A stretch of DNA of 64,000 nucleotides from an uncultured Gammaproteobacteria bacterium. Its GTDB lineage: Bacteria; Patescibacteriota; Microgenomatia; Levybacterales; UBA12049. Location: positions 149,731-213,730 of the forward strand of contig CAZERI010000002.1 in the NCBI GenBank assembly GCA_964515545.1, read 5' to 3'. The position numbers and the translations under genes are program-made. Below the pieces are notes generated by a model. That model was not told the origin of the DNA and searched no databases. It saw only the letters and a program-made list of their open reading frames with translations. How positions within the stretch are numbered: position 1 is the first letter of the stretch; each line of letters starts with the position of its first letter. Positions 24,352 through 63,081 of this stretch are shown here, piece after piece.

Positions 24352-24690
24352 CTAGCGGATAGAGGATCCAGGAAGAGTAGTGCTTGATGGAATAAGAGGA
24401 ACAGGGCGTCCTCCATCTTTTCCTTCTGCAGCAAGAATCATACCTTGAGATTCCTCATCCATCATCTTTCTGGGAGCTAAGTTTACGATAAAAATAAAGC
24501 TTTTATCAGCAAATTCTTCAGGTTCAAACATCGGATAAAGAGCCGTAAAAATGGTCTTTACTCCTTCATCACCAAAATCAACACTAAGCCTGATCAGCTT
24601 TTCAGATCCTTCTTTGCGTTCAGCTTTTGTGACTAACCCTACTCGCAGATCGAGTTTGGCAAAATCATCAATTGTTACAATATCTTTCAT
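24352..24690 (-). CDS. tRNA-binding protein (CsaA/Trbp111-like EMAP/OB-fold domain)
   Basis: MKDIVTIDDFAKLDLRVGLV matches the tRNA-binding domain found at MetRS/PheT C-termini and in CsaA. Start taken at the internal Met of ORF 24352..24723. Confidence 0.7.
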   Translation of the reverse strand: MKDIVTIDDFAKLDLRVGLVTKAERKEGSEKLIRLSVDFGDEGVKTIFTALYPMFEPEEFADKSFIFIVNLAPRKMMDEESQGMILAAEGKDGGRPVPLIPSSTTLPGSSIR

Positions 24691-24730
24691 CTTCTTTATT
24701 ATACCATGTCCACCGCCTAGCAATTAACAA

Positions 24731-24759
24731 TTGACAATATATAGGACTATGATTATTAT
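24731..24759 (+). promoter_or_regulatory. sigma70-like promoter TTGACA-N17-TATTAT for the purF-purN gene
   Basis: TTGACA at 24731-24736, 17-nt spacer, TATTAT at 24754-24759. Confidence 0.4.
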
Positions 24760-24816
24760 GGAGTTGATGCTACTTAAGAGCAATCAATATAATAATTATT
24801 ATTAATGACTGAATGC

Positions 24817-24840
24817 AACCCGCCATGGCGGGTTTTTTTA
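24817..24840 (+). terminator. intrinsic-terminator-like hairpin in the 5' leader of the purF-purN gene (candidate attenuator)
   Basis: AACCCGC-CATG-GCGGGTT stem-loop followed by TTTTTTT, about 50 nt downstream of the predicted TSS and about 38 nt upstream of RBS GAAAGGA/ATG 24879. No upstream + strand gene for it to terminate. Confidence 0.5.
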
Positions 24841-24878
24841 TGGAAAGACTAGTAGTAGTTGGGAATGAAGATGAAAGG

Positions 24879-27014
24879 ATGCTGCAGGATAAATGCGGTA
24901 TCATAGGGCTGAGCTACCCCGACTGGATGATGGATAGCAAAGGTGAGGCTGCACCTAGCATGGTACGCAATGCTTTAGTAGCACTTCAGCATAGAGGTCA
25001 AGATAGTGCGGGTTTTACCGCTTTAAATGGAGATATGAAGACGTATCACGGGATTGGTCTTATTAACCAGGCAATTCCGGATGAAGATTTAGTAAAGGCA
25101 GGCGGAAGCAGGAGAGCTATTGGACATACACGATATAGAACTAAGGGCAGTATCTCAGGTGAGAACAGTCAGCCTATCCAGGTGCAAAATAATGATTATG
25201 TGCTTAGTCTTGCCCATAATGGCAATCTTACTAACGTTAATTGGCTGCGTGATAATACCGAACAGGTTTTTTCAGAAGATGCATCTGACACGGTTCTTCT
25301 GACTGCTTACCTTCTGCAGCAACGACACCTCTATCCCTCATGGGAGACTACTTTTCAAGAAGAAATGCCTCGTGTTAAAGGTGCATATAGCGCTGTAGCC
25401 TTAACAGAGGATGGAAATCTGCATGGTTTTAGAGACCCTTATGGAATTAGACCCTTTGTCGTCGGAGCATTTAGAGAGGGAGGAGTAATGATGGCCTCAG
25501 AATCTGTCGCTTTTGATACTGTGGGTGCTGAATATAGGAGACAGCTTGAGAGAGGTGAAATTATGACAGTAACTCCTGATGGAGACATACAATCGCTTTT
25601 CTATGGAGAGCCTAAAAGATCGAGATTCTGTACTTTTGAAAATTTTTATTTTCAACGTCCCGAAACATTTAGTAATGGTCAGAGGGTACAGTCAGGCAGG
25701 GTTGAGTCCGGTAGATTACTAGCCGAGAGGATGGAAAGTAAAAATATTAACTTTGATATCGTAGTTCCTACCCCTGCATCAGGATCACTTGCGGGGGAAG
25801 GATTAGCTGAGCGCTCAGGTAAACGGCTGGTCCATGGAGTAGGAACGAGTCATTATCTTGGGAGGACCTTTATTATGCCAGGGGAGGAAAACCGTAAAGA
25901 TGCGGTAAGCAATAAGCATATTATCATGCCGGATGAGCTGGATGATATGTCTGTAGCAGATGAAGACGACTCAACTGTACGCGGAACAACCTCAGGTAAA
26001 ATTACTGAAGAATTACGAAGAGGAGGTGCTCGTGAAGTGCATAAAGCCCTAGCTGCTCCTCCTGTTGTTAATACTTGTGATTTGGGGGTAGATATGCACG
26101 ACCGCTCAGAATTGCCTGCTGCAAAAGTAGCGGATAGATCTCATGAGGAAATAGAAAATTATATGGCACAGGTTATGCATTCGGATACTGCTACATTTCT
26201 TACTCGTGAAGAAGTATCAAGAGCGTTTAATAGGGATGAAAAAGATATGTGCACCTTCTGTCTAGGTGGTGAGCATCCAGTCCATGGCCGACAAGAGGAA
26301 TTTCCTCAACGGGAACGCCAAATGAGAGGCAGGCCAAAGCTTTCAGTTTTTATCTCAGGTAATGGGACTAATCTTCAGGAGATAATAAATGGAACTCAGT
26401 CCGGTACGCTTAAGGGGGAGATTGTCTCAGTTGTCTCGAGTAATCCTTATGCTTTTGGCCTCCGAAGAGCAATGGAGGCAGAACTGCCAATTTTTTCTAT
26501 TAGTTCCAAAGGAAAGTTGAGTAATCCTTTAAAAAGAGCAGAGTACGAAGAAAAATTACTGGATGTGCTCTATTCCAATCTCCCTGATGTTCTGGTTCTG
26601 GCTGGATTTATGAATATATTAGGAGATTCTTTTTTAGAAACTATGCAGGATTTAGAGATACCAGTTGTTAATCTCCATCCAGCTCTTTTGCCTTCTGATA
26701 AGAGGGATCAGATAGCGACTTCTCGAGGAAGAATGCCTGTTCTGAGGGGGACAGATGCGATTGATAAGGCTTTTGATCTTAATTTGCGTGCCTCAGGGGT
26801 AACGGTACATCAGGTACTGCCTGGAAATGAGTGTGATACTGGACCGGTTATTCTTAAAGAAGAAGTCCATCGTCGAGTAGACGATACACCTGAGGAGTGG
26901 GAGAAGAGAATTCATGAAGCAGAATTTAGAGTCCTTCCAACAGCTATTAAGAGAGTTCTTCATGTTATGGAACATGGAATAGATGTCAGCCGAGGTGAGT
27001 TCCCCTGGAGCTAA
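24879..27014 (+). CDS. purF: bifunctional fusion: amidophosphoribosyltransferase (PurF, Ntn glutamine amidotransferase + PRTase) fused to a PurN-like formyltransferase (GAR transformylase) domain
   Basis: N-terminal MLQDK-CGIIGL (propeptide plus catalytic Cys). RGQDSAGF, IGHTRYRTKG, HNGNLTN and the PRTase motif DEDDSTVRGTTS. C-terminal about 200 aa with LSVFISGNGTNLQEII, NLHPALLP and GVTVHQV...DTGPVIL, the Formyl_trans_N/PurN motifs. Start moved to ATG 24879, preceded by GAAAGGA. Confidence 0.8.
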   Translation: MLQDKCGIIGLSYPDWMMDSKGEAAPSMVRNALVALQHRGQDSAGFTALNGDMKTYHGIGLINQAIPDEDLVKAGGSRRAIGHTRYRTKGSISGENSQPIQVQNNDYVLSLAHNGNLTNVNWLRDNTEQVFSEDASDTVLLTAYLLQQRHLYPSWETTFQEEMPRVKGAYSAVALTEDGNLHGFRDPYGIRPFVVGAFREGGVMMASESVAFDTVGAEYRRQLERGEIMTVTPDGDIQSLFYGEPKRSRFCTFENFYFQRPETFSNGQRVQSGRVESGRLLAERMESKNINFDIVVPTPASGSLAGEGLAERSGKRLVHGVGTSHYLGRTFIMPGEENRKDAVSNKHIIMPDELDDMSVADEDDSTVRGTTSGKITEELRRGGAREVHKALAAPPVVNTCDLGVDMHDRSELPAAKVADRSHEEIENYMAQVMHSDTATFLTREEVSRAFNRDEKDMCTFCLGGEHPVHGRQEEFPQRERQMRGRPKLSVFISGNGTNLQEIINGTQSGTLKGEIVSVVSSNPYAFGLRRAMEAELPIFSISSKGKLSNPLKRAEYEEKLLDVLYSNLPDVLVLAGFMNILGDSFLETMQDLEIPVVNLHPALLPSDKRDQIATSRGRMPVLRGTDAIDKAFDLNLRASGVTVHQVLPGNECDTGPVILKEEVHRRVDDTPEEWEKRIHEAEFRVLPTAIKRVLHVMEHGIDVSRGEFPWS

Positions 27015-27038
27015 ATGCTTTGCTATACTGGATATATT

Positions 27039-27611
27039 ATGACGGGACGAACACATGATTTGGCTGCTTTTACAGCTTTGTCGTATGTTCTCGTTACGAC
27101 TCCTCCAGAAAAAATAAGTCTTGCTACCGCTCTTGTTGCATTCTCAGTTAATATGGTGGGAGGCCTTGCTCCTGATTTGGATCAGCCTACTGCTAGACTT
27201 TGGCATAATATCAGAGGAGGAAGCATTATCGGTAAAGTTATCTCCCCGCTTCTGGGAGGTCACCGATTTATTTCACACTCTCTTATCGGTATAGTCATAG
27301 GAGGGATAATTGCTAAAGCAGTTCTTGATATAGTGGGCACTGTGCTTCTTGTCGATATGCATATTGTCTGGTGGGCATTTATGATAGGGATGGTTTCTCA
27401 CATTTTTATGGATTTATTTACTCATGAAGGCGTTCCTCTTCTTTTTCCTATTCCCATCCGATTTGGAATTCCTCCGTTAAGTTTTTTGAGAATAAAGACA
27501 GGAGGACTCGTAGAGAAGTCATTTGTCTTTCCTATTCTTATCTTTATAAATGGCTTCCTTTACTATACCAACTATCAGACAATTCTTACGTTTTTACGTC
27601 ATTTGCGATGA
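27039..27611 (+). CDS. membrane-bound metal-dependent hydrolase (DUF457/YdjM-like)
   Basis: MTGRTHDLAAF N-terminus, multiple TM segments and conserved His residues (HSLIG, HIFMDLFTHEG), consistent with DUF457. Confidence 0.55.
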   Translation: MTGRTHDLAAFTALSYVLVTTPPEKISLATALVAFSVNMVGGLAPDLDQPTARLWHNIRGGSIIGKVISPLLGGHRFISHSLIGIVIGGIIAKAVLDIVGTVLLVDMHIVWWAFMIGMVSHIFMDLFTHEGVPLLFPIPIRFGIPPLSFLRIKTGGLVEKSFVFPILIFINGFLYYTNYQTILTFLRHLR

Positions 27612-27650: not shown

Positions 27651-28835
27651 ATGCTTCAGTCAGCAAAAAATTATTTTCATTTATTACAGGCAATTCGGGC
27701 TGTGAGAAAGTATAAGAATCCCTCTCAGAGCTTAACGATAATAGGAGTAACTGGGACTGATGGAAAGACTACTACTGCAAGTCTTATTTACCATATTTTG
27801 AAAGAAGCAGGCTATAAAACAGCTCTCATTTCGACTGTAGCAGCATACATCGAGGATAAGAAATATGACACTGGATTTCACGTCTCGACTCCTGATAGCG
27901 CTACCCTTCAATCATATATCGCAAAAGCCAAAAAAGTCGGTGTAACCCATATTGTGTTGGAGGTAACGTCACACGCTCTTGATCAGCATAGAGTCCATGG
28001 AATTCATTTCGCAATCGGAGTCTTAACGAATATTAGCCATGAGCATTTAGATTATCATAAGACAATGCAACATTATATGCAGGCAAAAGCCAAACTTCTA
28101 GAGAGTTCGGATGTCTCTATTATTAATCGTGATGATGACTCTTATACTTTTATGCAGAATCGTCTAAAAAATAAAAAGGTAATAAGTTATGGTTTGAGCA
28201 ATTTAGCTGACAGCAACCTTTCAAACCATTCTTTTAAAACAAATCTGCCAGGTATATTTAACCAGTCCAATATCTTAGCTGCGTTAACGGTAGCAGATAT
28301 TTTAGAAGTTGATCCTCAGAAAGCTGCCCATGCCATCTCTTCTTTTCACCTTCCTGAAGGGAGAATTGATGTTGTCTACGATAAGGACTTTAAAGTCATT
28401 ATAGATTTTGCACATACGCCGAACGCTCTTAGAAACATTCTGCAGACTCTCAGGGAGACTACTCCTCAGGGAAGGATAATTCATGTCTTTGGCAGTGCAG
28501 GGAAAAGAGATGCAAGCAAGAGACCAGCTATGGGAAAGATTTCTCAAGAGCTTTCTGATATCATCGTCCTAACTTCGGAGGATCCAAGAGATGAGTCACC
28601 TGAAAAAATTGCGGAAGATATCACCTTGGGTATGACAGCCAGCCAGACTAAGCTTTCTTTTATAGCAGATAGACAGGAGGCTATAACTCAGGCGATACGT
28701 CTCGCGGAGAAAGGCGATGTGGTTATTATCACAGGGAAAGGTCATGAAAAATCGATGAATTTAGGCCAGGGAGAAAAAAAATGGAGTGATCATGATGCAG
28801 TAGAGAAAGCCTTAAAAGAATTATGGAAAAATTAA
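27651..28835 (+). CDS. murE: UDP-N-acetylmuramoyl-L-alanyl-D-glutamate--2,6-diaminopimelate (or L-Lys) ligase MurE, short N-terminus
   Basis: Mur ligase P-loop IGVTGTDGKTTT, central DFAHTP and C-terminal LTSEDPRDE (DNPR-like) motifs. Confidence 0.8.
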   Translation: MLQSAKNYFHLLQAIRAVRKYKNPSQSLTIIGVTGTDGKTTTASLIYHILKEAGYKTALISTVAAYIEDKKYDTGFHVSTPDSATLQSYIAKAKKVGVTHIVLEVTSHALDQHRVHGIHFAIGVLTNISHEHLDYHKTMQHYMQAKAKLLESSDVSIINRDDDSYTFMQNRLKNKKVISYGLSNLADSNLSNHSFKTNLPGIFNQSNILAALTVADILEVDPQKAAHAISSFHLPEGRIDVVYDKDFKVIIDFAHTPNALRNILQTLRETTPQGRIIHVFGSAGKRDASKRPAMGKISQELSDIIVLTSEDPRDESPEKIAEDITLGMTASQTKLSFIADRQEAITQAIRLAEKGDVVIITGKGHEKSMNLGQGEKKWSDHDAVEKALKELWKN

Positions 28836-35264: not shown

Positions 35265-36824
35265 ATGCGAATGGATGGAATGTATATTTTTACATCGGTG
35301 GCTTTTTTTATCTGGGCACTGCGCTCGATTTCCTATTGGATTAATCAGTGGCAGAGGTTATCTAGTGGAACACTTCAAGTAAGGTCTCCATTCAAATATG
35401 TAGTAAAAACATTTTTTTCGCCCTTTTCAGTTATTAGCTGGACGGGAGTTATTTTTGCTTTTTATATAACTATCGTAGATCTACCCCTCATTTACTACGA
35501 ATCTTTTATATTCTTTATATTTATTTTCAAAGCGGTATTTACTCTTATTGATCTTGGAGGAGGTAGGGTAACTCTTCCCCGATTTACCTGGCAGAACAGT
35601 ATTATTAGCTGTCTGGCAGTTATTTTAACAGCTGTTGTAATTGCCCTTCCTCTAACTGAAAGGTATTTGTGGCTTTTGTTAGTCGATAGAATGCTTTTTC
35701 TTTTTGTTGCATTACCTGTCTTTCTTATTTTATTTCCTAGTGAAATTTTGGATGATATTCAGTTAAGAAGAGCAGAACAGCTAATCAGAAAATTAAGAAG
35801 AATTAAGCCTGTTTTTATTCTTGGAGAGAATGCTACAGAGACAGCTTATTTTATGCAGCAGACTATCAGAAAGAAAAGGACTGTAATTGTAATAGAAGGT
35901 CCATTTATGAGGCCCGGATTTATAGCTAAGTCTATTATAAAAAATACTACCCCCAAAACAGATTTTATTTTCATTGTTATTCCGAAAATACACCTATCAT
36001 TACTTAATACTATAGCGAGAATAGTTCCGCCGGCTTTTGTTATTTTTTTGGATAAAGATCCAAAAGTATTTCAGAAAACAATAAAAGTACTTGATCCTTC
36101 TATTTCTAAAAATACCTCTCTTATTATGGATCAGGCAGTAAAAAATACAGCTGCTAGTAAGAGAAGAAACGTCTTCTCATTTGATGCACAAATTGGAGGA
36201 TCTCAGAAAAGTGATATTGCTCTGCTTTCATTCATGCAGAAAAAAGATGAACTGCAGATTTCCCTACGTCTTGATAGAGAAATGCAGATAAAAATTCCTG
36301 TTATTGGCAGCCATCATCTGCTTTACCTTCTTCCAGGGTTTCTTTTCGCTCATTTAATTGGATTTACGGAAGAAGAGCTGATAGCAGTTCAGAATTATAA
36401 CAGCCCAATGCCTGGAAGATTGGTAGGGCATATACTTCATTCAGGAATTGTCATTATTGATGCTACCCGTATCAAACAAAAAACTGAGGTAAGTGGCTCT
36501 CTTGAATACTTAAAAATTTATCATAAGAAAAAAATTGTGGTCTTTGGTATAGATGATGAGTTGAGTGCAGATGAGATAAAATCTCTTAAGACAGAATTCT
36601 CCCAGCCTACTTTGGTAATAGTCTTGAGACAGAAATACCAGCAGCTTATCAGAAGGCTTGTTCGTGTCGGTACAGGGAAATCAGAGGTAAAATTCAGTAA
36701 CGAGGAAGGAGTCCTTCAGCTCGTTTTAGATGAGTTAGGAAAAGGAGATGTAGTTCTTCTTATCGGTAAAGATGCAGAAGCGTTAGTCGAATCAATTTTG
36801 CTGTCCTCGCGAACACTTAGGTAA
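35265..36824 (+). CDS. MurF-like Mur-ligase homologue with degenerate ATP-binding loop and an N-terminal polytopic membrane domain (putative pseudoenzyme)
   Basis: About 170-aa hydrophobic N-terminus (4-5 TM). Then VFILGENATET where MurF has ITGSNGKTT (no Lys/Thr of Walker A), a retained VIVIEG (catalytic Glu region), IGSHHLLYLLPGFLFAHLIG...PMPGRL (MurF middle/C-domain-like) and VVFGIDDEL. Sits exactly where murF normally precedes mraY. Confidence 0.45.
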   Translation: MRMDGMYIFTSVAFFIWALRSISYWINQWQRLSSGTLQVRSPFKYVVKTFFSPFSVISWTGVIFAFYITIVDLPLIYYESFIFFIFIFKAVFTLIDLGGGRVTLPRFTWQNSIISCLAVILTAVVIALPLTERYLWLLLVDRMLFLFVALPVFLILFPSEILDDIQLRRAEQLIRKLRRIKPVFILGENATETAYFMQQTIRKKRTVIVIEGPFMRPGFIAKSIIKNTTPKTDFIFIVIPKIHLSLLNTIARIVPPAFVIFLDKDPKVFQKTIKVLDPSISKNTSLIMDQAVKNTAASKRRNVFSFDAQIGGSQKSDIALLSFMQKKDELQISLRLDREMQIKIPVIGSHHLLYLLPGFLFAHLIGFTEEELIAVQNYNSPMPGRLVGHILHSGIVIIDATRIKQKTEVSGSLEYLKIYHKKKIVVFGIDDELSADEIKSLKTEFSQPTLVIVLRQKYQQLIRRLVRVGTGKSEVKFSNEEGVLQLVLDELGKGDVVLLIGKDAEALVESILLSSRTLR

Positions 36825-48541: not shown

Positions 48542-48681
48542 ATTTCTACTCTTTCAGGGTCGGGTGACTCGCAGTGGCGAGAATTCCCAATCGGTAGTTA
48601 CACTCTACGAGTTTTCCTAATTAGGAGACAGGAGTCTGTTAGACACAGACAGCGACGGTATAGTCCGGATAGAAGAAAGAT

Positions 48682-49602
48682 ATGAAAAAACTCCTCGGCT
48701 TCGGGCCGTTATTTGTCGTTATTGCTGCGCTCCTTTGGAGCTTTGATGGACTGTTAAGGATCAGTCTCTACTCTCTTCCTCCTGCTGTTATTGTTTTTTA
48801 CGAACATCTCTTAGGATTTATTGTTTTACTTTTCCTGAGCTTTAAGTGGGTGAAAGATCTTAAAGAGATGACGCGAAAGGAGTGGATTGCGATAGGAATA
48901 GTGGCACTCTTCTCCGGTGCGTTGGGGACCATCTTATATACCACAGCACTGAACTTTATTCACTATACTCAGTATTCAGTGGTTGTCCTTCTTCAGCAGC
49001 AGCTTCAGCCAGTTTGGGCTATTGGAGCAGCGGGTCTTCTCTTAAAAGAAAGGATTACAAAACGATTTGTCCTCTATGCGATTCTCGCATTAGTTTCTGC
49101 TTATTTCATCACGTTTAAAGATCTTCAGGTAAATTTCGCTACAGGAGGCGGGACTATCCTGGCTGCATTATTAGCAATAGGAGCTGGATTTATGTGGGGT
49201 ACCTCCACTGCTATTAGTAAAGTTGTACTCAACCGTGTCTCTTTTATTGCAGGGACTGCATTAAGATTTATGTTAGCTCCTATTTTTGCATTAGGCTTTG
49301 TTATTATGGGAGGGCAGACAGCTTCACTTACCCAGTTAAGTCTGCCGCAGCTTCAGACATTACTTCTTATTACCTTCTCAACCGGTATGGTAGCGCTGCT
49401 TTTTTATTACTATGGCTTAAAAAGAACTCCTGCACGGATTACCACTCTTTGTGAATTAGTCTGGCCAGCATCTGCTATTCTTATCGATTACTTTCTTTTT
49501 CATAAAAGCCTTACCTTTACGCAGATATTTGGAGTAATTGTCCTTCTGGTCGCAATTTATAAAATTACCATGCCTCTTTCTAAAAAAACTCCATCTATCT
49601 AA
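48682..49602 (+). CDS. EamA/DMT-superfamily transporter (10 TM)
   Basis: Two tandem EamA-like halves, hydrophobic throughout, 306 aa. Confidence 0.75.
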   Translation: MKKLLGFGPLFVVIAALLWSFDGLLRISLYSLPPAVIVFYEHLLGFIVLLFLSFKWVKDLKEMTRKEWIAIGIVALFSGALGTILYTTALNFIHYTQYSVVVLLQQQLQPVWAIGAAGLLLKERITKRFVLYAILALVSAYFITFKDLQVNFATGGGTILAALLAIGAGFMWGTSTAISKVVLNRVSFIAGTALRFMLAPIFALGFVIMGGQTASLTQLSLPQLQTLLLITFSTGMVALLFYYYGLKRTPARITTLCELVWPASAILIDYFLFHKSLTFTQIFGVIVLLVAIYKITMPLSKKTPSI

Positions 49603-60329: not shown

Positions 60330-61337
60330 ATGAAAAAAATAATCTTTCTTACCAGATCATATTACCCAAATGGAGGAGGAGTGGAAAAACATATCTATGA
60401 AATTTCTAAAGTACTGGCAGGCAGAGGAGATAGAATTACTATTATTACCGAAGATTCATTACAAAATAAAACAATTGATTTTAATTTTGCTATAAAAGGA
60501 GTTAAGATAATACGAATTCCGGCTGGTAGAAATAATTGGTTTAAAAAATTTAGAATTTGGCAATGGATATGGAGAAATAAAGAGCAAATATTGAACTCTG
60601 ATATTATCCACTGTCACGATGTCTTCTTCTGGTACTTACCGCTTGCCATTACTAATCCTCTTAAAAGTGTCTATACGACATTTCATGGATATGAAAGCTA
60701 TCCTATCAAACTAAAAGCGGTTATCTACCGTAAAGTATTTGAGTATATGTCAAACAAGACAATCTGTGTAGGAGATTTTATGCGCAAGTGGTATCATGCT
60801 CATCCAACAGCTGTTATTTATGGCGGAGTGGAACTGCCAGCAAAATCAAGTAAACCAAGAAAAAATACAGCTGTATTTATTGGAAGACTTGATGAACATA
60901 CGGGTATCAAGACATATGTTGAGGCTGTCACACTTTTAAGGAAAAAGATACCCTCCTTTACTTTAACTGTGTATGGAGATGGACCACTTAAGGATGAGAT
61001 CAAAAGAGAAGGAGTAATACTAAAAGGATTTGATCCTCATGCAGATAAGGAGATTCAAAAATATGAATACGCATTTATTTCTCGGTATTTAGGCATACTT
61101 GAAGCTATGGCGGGAAAACGTCTTATTTTCTCCCATTATGATAATCCTGTTAAAAAAGATTATTTAGAAATGACTCCTTACCGGGAGTGGATAGTGTCAT
61201 TTACATCAGCTAAAGAATTAGTATCTCTGATACAAAATAATAAAAATTACTCTGCAAAAGTAACTAATGCTTACGAGTGGGTAAAAGGCCAGAGTTGGGA
61301 GCATGTCGCTGACGTCTATTCTTCTTTGTGGAAGTAA
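60330..61337 (+). CDS. GT4 (group 1) glycosyltransferase
   Basis: MKKIIFLTRSYYPNGGGVEKH N-terminal GT4 motif. C-terminal domain about 335 aa. Confidence 0.8.
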   Translation: MKKIIFLTRSYYPNGGGVEKHIYEISKVLAGRGDRITIITEDSLQNKTIDFNFAIKGVKIIRIPAGRNNWFKKFRIWQWIWRNKEQILNSDIIHCHDVFFWYLPLAITNPLKSVYTTFHGYESYPIKLKAVIYRKVFEYMSNKTICVGDFMRKWYHAHPTAVIYGGVELPAKSSKPRKNTAVFIGRLDEHTGIKTYVEAVTLLRKKIPSFTLTVYGDGPLKDEIKREGVILKGFDPHADKEIQKYEYAFISRYLGILEAMAGKRLIFSHYDNPVKKDYLEMTPYREWIVSFTSAKELVSLIQNNKNYSAKVTNAYEWVKGQSWEHVADVYSSLWK

Positions 61338-63081
61338 TTTTTATACGATTAAGTAGCGCATGGATACCTCTTCGAGTAAGTAAGTAAAATGCTAAAGAAA
61401 GAGCAGTAATACCGCTTATCCATTTCCCACTTATCCTATCCGCTGTATCGGTAAAAGTCAGGTCAATCTTTGACAACCCAGGGGGGACTTTAAAGGTAAT
61501 TACTCCTGTATATATCTTATTGTGGTAATCAATGGCTACTTCTTTATCATTAATGAAAGTCTTCCATCCGGGGTAATAATAGGTGTTTTCTTTAATCCTC
61601 ATAGGTGTCTTTGCATATATCAGATACTGATGATTGGTCATATCATGCTTGAGTATTTTTATCTCTCCTTGTCCAGAAAGTACTTCTATGGGAGAGTGAG
61701 GAACTGTACCAATCCAGATCTGGTCTCTATTGACAGAATTTGGAGTAGTAAGATCTACCACTCCAGGTCTTTCTCCAAAGAGAGGTTGGGATCTGATTAC
61801 GCTGTCACTGAGGAATGGAACCATTTTTCTATTTCCCCAGTTTAGTAGGGTATACATGATAGTAAAAAAACAAATGATATAGATAATTTTTTTAGGGATC
61901 ACCTTAGTGGTAATGGCAGCAATGAGTGATGTCAGTAAGCTGATCTCTATTAAAAGCCTCCATGTAAATTGAAAATTTTTAAGAAGCGGAGTTAGGTTCC
62001 AGATGGGGCGTGTTATTTCCTGCATTGCTATAAAAAGAACAGAAAATACCGCCAGGCTCAGTGCCAGTAAATAATAATTTTTACCTTTTACTTTCTTTTT
62101 GATAAGAATATACAATGCAATACCTATAACAATCCACTGAAGGTAGCCGACATTTAAGTACAGTTCACCACGATGTCCTTGGAAAAGGAGTCCAAATCTA
62201 TTTTCAGAGTAGAGAAAGCTGCTAAGCGGATGGAAGTCTATCTTATCGTCAGTTACATACCAAGTTAATTTACCTTCGGCAAGTACAGGGATCCAGTAAA
62301 AGGCTGCTAGTAAAATTCCTAGCAATTGTGAGAAAAATGAAATAATTAAAGAGGAAAATTTTCTTTTTTTAATTCTTATCCATACAATGAACGAGTATCC
62401 TAACAGAAGCGGAAGAGCGACAAAAGAAGTGACTTGATGAGACAGGATAAGAAGTCCAAAAAATATTCCCTCTAAGATAAAATAAAAAGACTTTTTTGAC
62501 TCAATAAATCTTTTTGTTAGGAGGAAGGTAAATGGGAGAATTGTAAATGATACCATTTCTCCAATCGCGACTCTAAAATGAAGATCAATAAGGTGATATG
62601 GGGCAAACAAATAAAATATACCAGCGACAAACCCTGCTAGCTCACCAAGTTCCTCTTTTATCCAAAGATACATTCCCAGTCCTGAAGCGACAAAACTGGT
62701 AATAAGAAGTAGTTTGATGCTTCCGATAAATGAAAAGCCGAGAAAATGGAAAAAAGATGCTATGTAGTAAGGAAAGGGATAGATAAATATGTATACCGGA
62801 CAGCCATAAGATCCGCAGTGCCTACCCATCCATTGGGGGATGAGGTTGCCTTGGACAATATTGTCAAAAAATTGGGCAGTAAATTTGGCATGAAGGGTCA
62901 GATCTCCACTTTCATACGTTCCATTTCGAAGAATACTGATGAGCGGGAGGAAGGAAATAAGAAGTAGAAGGATAAAAAAACTAATCTTTTTTTTAAAAAC
63001 TTTTGTATAAATAACCAGCCCGCTTAGTAAGGAAAAAGACGCTATTAGACTTACAAAAACCATTCTTTGTGGCTCAAGCAT
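61264..63081 (-). CDS. polytopic membrane protein, GT-C-fold (ArnT/PMT/YfhO-like) putative glycosyltransferase
   Basis: 605 aa, more than 12 TM. Loop NGTYESGDLTLHAKF...LIPQWMG. Paralogous to the ORFs at 1..1920 and 58779..60308. Confidence 0.5.
   Translation of the reverse strand: MLEPQRMVFVSLIASFSLLSGLVIYTKVFKKKISFFILLLLISFLPLISILRNGTYESGDLTLHAKFTAQFFDNIVQGNLIPQWMGRHCGSYGCPVYIFIYPFPYYIASFFHFLGFSFIGSIKLLLITSFVASGLGMYLWIKEELGELAGFVAGIFYLFAPYHLIDLHFRVAIGEMVSFTILPFTFLLTKRFIESKKSFYFILEGIFFGLLILSHQVTSFVALPLLLGYSFIVWIRIKKRKFSSLIISFFSQLLGILLAAFYWIPVLAEGKLTWYVTDDKIDFHPLSSFLYSENRFGLLFQGHRGELYLNVGYLQWIVIGIALYILIKKKVKGKNYYLLALSLAVFSVLFIAMQEITRPIWNLTPLLKNFQFTWRLLIEISLLTSLIAAITTKVIPKKIIYIICFFTIMYTLLNWGNRKMVPFLSDSVIRSQPLFGERPGVVDLTTPNSVNRDQIWIGTVPHSPIEVLSGQGEIKILKHDMTNHQYLIYAKTPMRIKENTYYYPGWKTFINDKEVAIDYHNKIYTGVITFKVPPGLSKIDLTFTDTADRISGKWISGITALSLAFYLLTRRGIHALLNRIKITSTKKNRRQRHAPNSGLLPTRKH

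Follow-up and report, generated by a model that had tools for sequence, protein, structure and literature searches.

Promoter and terminator upstream of purF-purN

The 64-kb stretch of DNA analyzed here, hereafter the window, comes from a bacterium of the candidate phyla radiation (CPR; Patescibacteria) that is of the Microgenomates type, is close to Levybacteria and has a G+C content of 39%. This placement is based on the isoleucyl-tRNA synthetase (IleRS) encoded in the window, which shares 77% identity with proteins listed at NCBI under Candidatus Levybacteria or Patescibacteria. The window contains a purF-purN gene, the 724-residue product of which fuses amidophosphoribosyltransferase (PurF) and glycinamide ribonucleotide formyltransferase (PurN), the enzymes of steps 1 and 3 of purine synthesis. 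The gene is preceded by a sigma-70-type promoter, a candidate upstream open reading frame (uORF) of 12 codons and an intrinsic terminator that adjoins the predicted start codon (Table 1). What is the function of a strong terminator that stands between a promoter and its gene?

The promoter matches the consensus at 11 of 12 positions in a hexamer scan. Promoter-like hexamer pairs occur as a class at chance level in this AT-rich DNA (25 observed in 20-30 kb versus 23.8 in shuffles). A block of ~37 nt at 24724-24762, which covers the -35 element, the entire spacer and the -10 element (AACAATTGACAATATATAGGACTATGATTATTATGGA), is 100% identical in the related locus L001, the PurF-PurN protein of which is only 83% identical. 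The sequence flanking the block has diverged between the window and L001, and the block is not kept in the more distant locus L092. This invariant block may be an operator for a DNA-binding regulator. An equivalent promoter of the form TTGAC-N17-19-TATAAT lies upstream of most orthologous leaders.

The terminator hairpin consists of a 7-bp stem with five G-C pairs, a 4-nt loop and seven Ts (5' arm, 24817-24823; loop, 24824-24827; return arm, 24828-24834; Ts, 24833-24839), and the first two Ts form base pairs with the AA at the foot of the stem. Folded alone, the hairpin has an energy of -11.0 kcal/mol, and it belongs to the minimum-free-energy fold of the leader. Under strict criteria (a perfect stem of at least 7 bp with at least five G-C pairs, followed by T5), the leader terminator is the sole match on both strands of the 64 kb, compared with a mean of 0.01 in 100 dinucleotide-preserving shuffles. 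A laxer scan of the window adds one further weak match, which is intragenic.

The first-pass annotation of the window had described the TTGACA-N17-TATTAT promoter, the GC-rich AACCCGC/CATG/GCGGGTT hairpin with its T7 tract, a scarcity of other factor-independent terminators and an upstream gene on the opposite strand. Our scans reproduce these observations. All elements of the promoter and of the hairpin lie where they had been placed, the hairpin stands far above chance, the scarcity of terminators holds in the strict and laxer scans alike, and the upstream gene is a tRNA-binding-domain gene on the minus strand. RNA folding, which the annotation had proposed as a check, retains the hairpin as described above.

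Table 1. Coordinates of the leader elements and adjacent genes in the window.
Feature	Coordinates	Strand	Description
Sigma-70-type promoter	24731..24759	+	TTGACA 24731-24736, 17-nt spacer, TATTAT 24754-24759
Predicted leaderless uORF, candidate leader peptide	24767..24805	+	ATG 24767 to TAA 24803-24805, 12 codons, MLLKSNQYNNYY
Spacer between uORF stop and terminator stem	24806..24816	+	11 nt
Intrinsic terminator	24817..24839	+	Stem AACCCGC/GCGGGTT, loop CATG, seven Ts
purF-purN fusion (amidophosphoribosyltransferase + glycinamide ribonucleotide formyltransferase)	24840..27014	+	Pfam and NCBIfam domains; 724 aa from ATG 24840
tRNA-binding-domain protein, CsaA/Trbp111-like	24352..24690	-	Pfam PF01588; TATAAT 7 nt before ATG, own leaderless promoter
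ydjM-like membrane hydrolase gene	27015..27611	+	Pfam PF04307; open reading frame starts directly past the purF-purN stop
murE	27651..28835	+	394 aa; TATAAT 7 nt before ATG 27651, own leaderless promoter

Start codon of the purF-purN gene

As judged from sequence evolution, the start codon of purF-purN is ATG 24840, immediately after the T-run. Between the window and its relatives with 83% identity (L001 and L005), the segment 24840-24878 exhibits five synonymous codon changes (CTA/TTA, GGG/GGT, GAA/GAG twice and AGG/CGA), three conservative replacements (R/K, V/L and N/Q) and no insertion or deletion. This pattern of synonymous changes and conservative replacements without an indel indicates that the segment is coding. 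In L092 (59% PurF-PurN identity), the called start codon likewise adjoins the T-run. With the start at ATG 24840, the terminator directly precedes the coding sequence, and every purF-purN transcript must therefore traverse the terminator.

This assignment differs from that of the first-pass annotation, which had the gene start at ATG 24879 behind a ribosome-binding site, GAAAGGA. Both strings exist, and ATG 24879 is in frame with ATG 24840, but a role in initiation is not upheld, given that the 39 nt upstream of ATG 24879 evolve as coding sequence. GAAAGGA occupies 24873-24879, and its final A is the A of ATG 24879, which leaves a spacing of zero. It was rejected as a ribosome-binding site because it overlaps the ATG, because it is replaced by GAGCGA or GAAAGA in relatives and because the genome is essentially without Shine-Dalgarno sites.

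Gene callers extend the coding sequence into the hairpin, predicting products of 733 and 729 residues from ATG 24813 and ATG 24825, respectively. This possibility was also considered and rejected. ATG 24813 is missing in L001. The loop start at 24825 is an in-frame ATG in the window and in L001, and it is absent from L101 and L105. L092 has the loop ATG in a different frame from purF-purN, with a stop after nine codons, and an in-frame GTG overlaps this ATG. Initiation at the loop ATG 24825 may occur in some loci, but it does not appear to be general. The gene start is thereby corrected for the whole protein family, for which callers place the start inside or before the hairpin and the first-pass annotation placed it 39 nt too late.

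An 18-residue propeptide precedes the catalytic cysteine of PurF-PurN. The fusion is rare, with only about 42 clusters among 5.8 billion proteins. No Pfam Pribosyltran domain was detected in PurF-PurN, and its two halves score below the NCBIfam cut-offs (297 versus 350 for purF and 138 versus 150 for PurN).

Conservation of the leader among relatives

Leaders of purF-purN were recovered from the window and from 14 related loci (L001, L092, L093, L096, L098, L099, L101, L102, L103, L105, L106, L108, L110 and L111). They represent 15 distinct lineages, with protein identities that range from 83% to 38%. In all 15 leaders, a promoter is followed by a short AT-rich leader and then by a CCCGC/GCGGG-type hairpin with T5-7 shortly upstream of the start codon. 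The terminator of L001 differs from that of the window only by a C-to-G change in the loop, with the pairing intact, and the terminator of L092 carries a compensatory pair (AACCCGA/TCGGGTT). The neighbors of the 15 loci are unrelated and include cell-wall genes, guaB, a release factor gene, a GTPase gene or a pur operon (purD, purL). Strong terminators in 92.6 kb of the relatives' loci are almost exclusively those of the leaders.

A control set was assembled from ordinary PurF genes of other phyla, which were obtained from a full-length-alignment scan of genome contigs that yielded no close relative. None of these 77 loci has a terminator within 250 nt upstream of purF. L091, an ENA contig of 2.47 Mb from a GC-rich lineage, carries a purF-purN gene without the leader or the terminator. 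The L091 fusion (57% identity) lies inside a pur operon and adjoins a purC-purM fusion. The occurrence of the fusion without the leader suggests that the attenuator is younger, or less mobile, than the fusion.

Two features of the locus indicate that the purF-purN mRNA must come from read-through of the terminator: the upstream gene is divergent, and the T-run abuts the start codon. Moreover, the order of promoter, leader and terminator is kept across genomic contexts, as a conditional terminator (attenuator) predicts. Thus, comparison of sequences provides strong support for a functional terminator inside the leader. The first-pass annotation had interpreted the hairpin as a conditional terminator belonging either to an attenuator or to a small riboswitch and had proposed a comparison of homologous leaders. 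The first part of this interpretation stands, as the hairpin lies within the leader, past the sole plausible promoter, is kept in all 15 recovered leaders and has to be read through; the riboswitch part finds no support, as described below.

Upstream reading frame and its position relative to the terminator

The ATG of the uORF is located 7 nt past TATTAT. An ATG frame of 12-28 codons near the predicted 5' end of the transcript is present in each of the first 12 independent leaders (12/12), and the stop codon of the frame falls within an interval that runs from 14 nt upstream of the terminator stem to 2 nt within it. In dinucleotide shuffles, a frame positioned in this way appears in a mean of 0.9 of 12 leaders, with a maximum of five in 2000 trials. 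The probability per leader is 3-14%, and multiplication over the leaders gives about 5e-15. Two leaders that were added later, L111 and L103, deviate from the rule of the 12 leaders. Overall, 14 leaders have the stop codon at -2 to +16 nt relative to the stem, and L103 represents a run-through. The distance from stop to stem is thus constrained, compared with a distance from the terminator to the main start that varies from 5 to 104 nt. The spacing between the -10 element and the ATG is 5-11 nt in 10 of 13 leaders, as counted from predicted promoters.

In L103, a 32-codon uORF (1144-1242) traverses the hairpin (1205-1221), and its TGA overlaps the TTG start codon of purF-purN (TTGA). The uORFs of L105, L106, L108 and L110 (at about 2420-2450 of each locus) have a GUAUCC(C)UUAU motif in common, which is read in differing frames (UUACCCCUAAU in L106) and is absent from the window leader. 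Across the leaders, the uORF peptides are unrelated in sequence and display no common amino-acid enrichment. Clustered codons for an end-product amino acid were not found in the leader frames. A conditional terminator is best accounted for by the uORF, which the first-pass annotation had overlooked.

Leaderless starts in this genome

Is a reading frame at the extreme 5' end of an mRNA likely to be translated in this organism? Hardly any of the 51 open reading frames (ORFs) in the window has a Shine-Dalgarno motif. A hexamer that matches TATAAT at five or more of six positions ends 5-7 nt before the start codon in 15 of the 51 ORFs, and other hexamer offsets are found in 0-1 ORFs each, with few small exceptions. 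Examples of such starts are 2296, 18179, 20305, 24690 (minus), 27651, 50092 and 61264-63081 (minus). The scarcity of Shine-Dalgarno motifs and the sharp -10 peak therefore suggest that leaderless mRNAs are the norm here, and leaderless mRNAs appear, from these sequence features, to be the rule in this CPR lineage. The 7-nt spacing of the uORF ATG coincides with the mode of the genome's -10-to-start distribution, and this promoter geometry leads us to infer that the uORF is translated. In the more distant loci, leaderless starts are less well evidenced. Many internal genes have start codons that overlap the preceding stop codon or follow it after a short gap. Our literature search found no paper on leaderless translation in CPR bacteria. 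A dominance of leaderless mRNAs in this lineage would matter for the annotation of CPR genomes.

Search for aptamers, antiterminators and other RNA features

No Rfam 15 family reaches its gathering score in the window leader or in the 14 related loci. When the leader was searched at E-values up to 10, only sub-threshold matches were obtained (Trp leader, rsmX and P9), all of which rest on the terminator hairpin. The match to the Trp leader model covers the terminator half only and scores 23 bits, compared with a threshold of 41. A search of L092 and L093 against Rfam at E-values up to 1 added no match to these. The first-pass annotation had been unable to match the leader by eye to the guanine/adenine, 5-aminoimidazole-4-carboxamide riboside 5'-triphosphate (ZTP) or phosphoribosyl pyrophosphate (PRPP) riboswitches, and the covariance search agrees with it. 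A scan of the window for tRNA and transfer-messenger RNA genes was likewise negative.

The leaders are not alignable and have no sequence motif common to all. RNAalifold detects three pairs in 11 leaders, all of them in the terminator, and no covariation or compensatory change upstream of it. Antiterminators were sought by folding the leaders with the 3' arm removed, whereby the 5' arm was unpaired in 12 of 13 leaders; in the window leader, it pairs weakly (-7.3 kcal/mol). The search for an antiterminator that had been proposed with the attenuator idea thus yields no convincing alternative partner in the 13 leaders. The folding energy of the leader is ordinary (z = -1.1 to -1.6). Without an Rfam match, a conserved aptamer or an antiterminator in these searches, the small-riboswitch option raised in the first-pass annotation is not supported.

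Two further candidates were considered. A 5' hairpin that masks the uORF AUG seemed to be present in the window, L001, L102 and L101, but the pairing probability of the AUG does not exceed that in shuffles (0.33 versus 0.29), and this idea was rejected. Purine-rich pause tracts were considered, and the purine fraction of the leader (0.54) proved uninformative. The leader has an A fraction of 0.38 and a U fraction of 0.32, and A-runs are present in L102 and L106, with no tract in common.

A proposed ribosome-sensed attenuator

We propose that the segment upstream of purF-purN is a transcription attenuator that is sensed by the translating ribosome rather than a ligand-binding RNA, and that it resembles the pyrE and pyrBI attenuators in operating without an antiterminator. 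We regard this reading as having a slightly better than even chance of being correct. Transcription would start ~7 nt past TATTAT, at or next to A24767. With such a start site, the mRNA would begin with AUG and would be translated as a leaderless 12-codon frame. This frame would end 11 nt before a strong terminator, which in turn would lie directly before ATG 24840. When the polymerase runs ahead of the ribosome, the hairpin would form and a ~75-nt transcript would be released. When a ribosome follows closely, it would be at or near the stop codon while the polymerase is on the U-tract, and it would mask or crowd the 5' arm. The hairpin would then be blocked, and transcription would continue into purF-purN and ydjM.

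The distance from the P site on the last sense codon to the expected release point is 27-44 nt in the leaders, with a median of 40 nt and a value of 39 nt in the window. Collided expressome structures have a minimal spacing of about 34 nt between the polymerase and the P site. The comparison of these spacings suggests that a ribosome that has reached the end of the frame would touch, or nearly touch, a polymerase on the U-tract. We infer that translation of the uORF suppresses termination. Most speculatively, the function of the regulated gene points to purine nucleotide supply as the signal: a polymerase that is slow at low ATP/GTP would couple tightly to the ribosome, resulting in read-through. 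The simplest mechanism of this kind, which is known from E. coli pyrE and pyrBI, needs an antiterminator-free terminator, a translated, sequence-indifferent reading frame beside it, a nucleotide gene downstream and no recognizable regulator site. The comparison of leaders gives good support for an attenuator that is conserved and has a positioned, leaderless frame, whereas the signal and the mechanism described here are proposals. A more far-reaching version holds that the leader is the purine counterpart of the 'repression without repressors' of pyrBI and pyrE, in which the gap between polymerase and ribosome reports ATP/GTP and which is conserved across Microgenomates-type CPR bacteria. We offer this version as a tentative extension that is rather unlikely to hold in full.

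Several points weigh against a ribosome-sensed attenuator. The reading is drawn from sequence alone. In 8 of 13 leaders, 11-14 nt separate the stop codon from the stem. A ribosome on a stop codon has its leading edge about 10 nt past it, and in these eight leaders the ribosome would therefore reach the edge of the G-C core without covering it. Termination in the eight leaders could then be suppressed only by a presumed crowding in the polymerase-ribosome complex. Purine sensing is without sequence support, as the leader is only slightly purine-rich and has no obvious nucleotide-specific pause tracts. Moreover, low GTP would slow translation as well as transcription, which would blur the logic relative to the UTP-sensing pyr systems. 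The leaderless assignment is not strict either, as the ATG lies 12-31 nt from the best -10 match in L098, L105 and L106. Finally, the criteria of the reading-frame test were fixed after inspection of the data. For this reason, one further leader (L111) was fetched as a test. The terminator is present in L111, but the frame comprises only eight codons, and its stop codon lies 16 nt upstream of the stem, a near miss. Under a relaxed frame rule that includes L111, a positioned frame is found in 13 of 13 leaders, versus 1.84 +/- 1.25 in shuffles.

Comparison with known attenuation systems

Antiterminator-free attenuators that depend on transcription-translation coupling are known for the pyrimidine genes of enterobacteria. 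At pyrE, read-through is reportedly set by how near the translating ribosome comes to the hairpin, according to work attributed to Bonekamp and Jensen. Expression of pyrE depends on the closeness of the rph stop codon to the attenuator and changes when the stop codon is moved (PMC2784333). The purF-purN leader resembles Escherichia coli rph-pyrE in that a frame ends a few nucleotides before the intrinsic terminator of a nucleotide-biosynthesis gene and no antiterminator is present. It differs in its dedicated 12-codon uORF, predicted to be leaderless, the role of which is taken at pyrE by a full upstream gene. It also differs in its purine target, its CPR host and its lack of an evident nucleotide-specific pause tract, and it is known from its sequence only.

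In pyrBI, the ribosome is said by Turnbough and Switzer to physically block the hairpin when the polymerase is slowed. E. coli pyrBI shares with the present leaders a leader peptide of irrelevant sequence that is combined with a terminator, without amino-acid regulatory codons, and the L103 frame runs through the hairpin as the pyrBI frame does. However, most frames here stop before the hairpin, whereas the pyrBI frame stops after it, and the frames here are predicted to be leaderless and span 12-28 codons, compared with 44 codons in pyrBI.

Leaderless leader peptides have been described in Deinococcus deserti (PMC4007540) and mycobacteria (10.1101/834739). In those organisms, leaderless mRNAs are common, and the leaders of biosynthetic operons can begin with an AUG that starts a short frame, as is predicted for the leaders described here. 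The Deinococcus and mycobacterial frames contain runs of cognate codons (Cys, Trp and others) and act by way of alternative RNA structures, and the mycobacterial ones act on translation. In contrast, the purF-purN leaders have no codon bias, no alternative structure and a purine target. The trp and his attenuators also consist of a leader ORF followed by a CCCGC/GCGGG-type terminator, but the purF-purN leaders lack their regulatory codons and 2:3 antiterminator. The riboswitches of the purine pathway (guanine/adenine, ZTP, PRPP and tetrahydrofolate) are similar in gene context and terminator output, but the purF-purN leaders have no covariance-model match and no conserved aptamer. Our literature search found no paper on leader-peptide attenuation of purine genes.

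Alternative explanations

The terminator may be regulated in some other way or may act as a leaky constitutive damper, with the uORF serving only to load ribosomes for reinitiation at the main ATG. This explanation survives best among the alternatives, although we consider it unlikely. The genome is without Shine-Dalgarno sites, many of its internal genes begin at an overlap with the preceding stop or a short gap after it, and no ribosome-binding site serves ATG 24840; a long leader in such a genome may need a leaderless uORF to deliver ribosomes. The L103 uORF, the stop codon of which overlaps the main start, displays the classic arrangement of coupled translation. However, the uORF stop is set relative to the terminator (-2 to +16 nt) and not to the main start, from which it is separated by 22 to about 140 nt, and a stable hairpin between stop and start would impede reinitiation. 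Furthermore, the gene at 48682, which is led by a flavin mononucleotide (FMN) riboswitch, has a ~140-nt leader and no comparable need for a uORF. Ribosome loading is plausibly compatible in part with a ribosome-sensed attenuator, and the two are not exclusive of each other.

Attenuation could also be mediated by a protein, such that an RNA-binding factor of the type of PyrR, TRAP or an antiterminator protein sets the terminator according to purines. No RNA-only switch is visible in the leader, the GUAUCC(C)UUAU motif is common to L105, L106, L108 and L110, and the window, L001 and L092 have a divergent gene for a tRNA-binding-domain protein. Nevertheless, we consider a protein factor improbable. 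No motif is universal, with GUAUCC missing from the window leader; the divergent tRNA-binding gene is missing from distant loci that keep the leader; and the positioned reading frame would be left unexplained. The tRNA-binding-domain gene was considered as the regulator in its own right and was set aside, given that its linkage to purF-purN is restricted to the closest relatives.

Very small aptamers that overlap terminators exist, as in the hydroxymethylpyrimidine pyrophosphate (HMP-PP) class, and the gene context (purine steps 1 and 3) and the leader terminator are typical of riboswitches. The ~50-nt leader might thus bind a purine-pathway metabolite and control the terminator directly. The searches described above argue against this model on each count, namely the Rfam 15 gathering scores with permissive matches that are sub-threshold and terminator-based, the unalignable leaders with three terminator pairs and no upstream covariation, the terminator arms without alternative pairing and the ordinary folding energy. 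A riboswitch is accordingly very improbable.

Least probable of all is an independent tiny gene or small RNA that comprises the promoter, ~75 nt and the terminator, with purF-purN expressed by unregulated leak-through: the unit is self-contained, and in L102 the terminator and the purF-purN start are ~104 nt apart, but it always accompanies purF-purN in otherwise unrelated neighborhoods, only its terminator and neither peptide nor RNA sequence is conserved, and in the window, L001 and L092 the start codon follows the T-run without a gap, leaving no space for a separate promoter.

Implications of the proposed ribosome-sensed attenuator for CPR bacteria

To our knowledge, almost nothing is known about gene regulation in CPR bacteria (Patescibacteria), which do not grow in isolation and in which very few regulators can be recognized. 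Genomes that are nearly without intrinsic terminators keep one strong terminator before a purine gene and pair it with a positioned mini frame. This pairing points to a regulator-free control circuit that is composed of RNA polymerase and the ribosome alone. The purF-purN leader thus offers a concrete case, testable in a cell-free system, of transcription-translation coupling as a sensor beyond the enterobacteria. If the more far-reaching version, a purine counterpart of pyrBI and pyrE, is correct, it would provide the first inferred mechanism of gene-specific regulation of nucleotide synthesis in the CPR and the first leader-peptide attenuator for purine genes.

Neighboring genes and other features of the window

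The window harbors a division and cell-wall cluster that contains mraZ, rsmH, ftsL and ftsI and, after an interruption, murE, murC and murA. The interruption at 24352-27611 consists of the tRNA-binding-domain gene (minus strand), purF-purN and ydjM, which interpose between ftsI and murE. The gene order of the window is found in L001-L004 and L005 (83% PurF-PurN identity), and the three-gene insertion is kept down to a PurF-PurN identity of 59% (L092). The tRNA-binding-domain gene stands beside purF-purN only in the window, L001 and L092, and not in more distant relatives. The ydjM-like gene is probably co-transcribed with purF-purN.

Alignment of the MurE protein to the MurE models of NCBIfam begins at about position 93, and the MurE proteins of relatives are equally short (390-399 residues). 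The late onset of the alignment indicates that the N-terminal domain is missing. Downstream of glmS, a 519-residue ORF at 35265-36824 (plus strand) exhibits a weak Mur_ligase_C match (E = 1.7e-4) and may encode a divergent Mur-type ligase. The only Rfam family in the window is the FMN riboswitch (RF00050) at 48546-48684 (plus strand), which scores 69.1 bits, compared with a threshold of 66.2. The end of this riboswitch coincides with the start of a gene for an EamA-family transporter (48682-49602), which is likely a riboflavin transporter.

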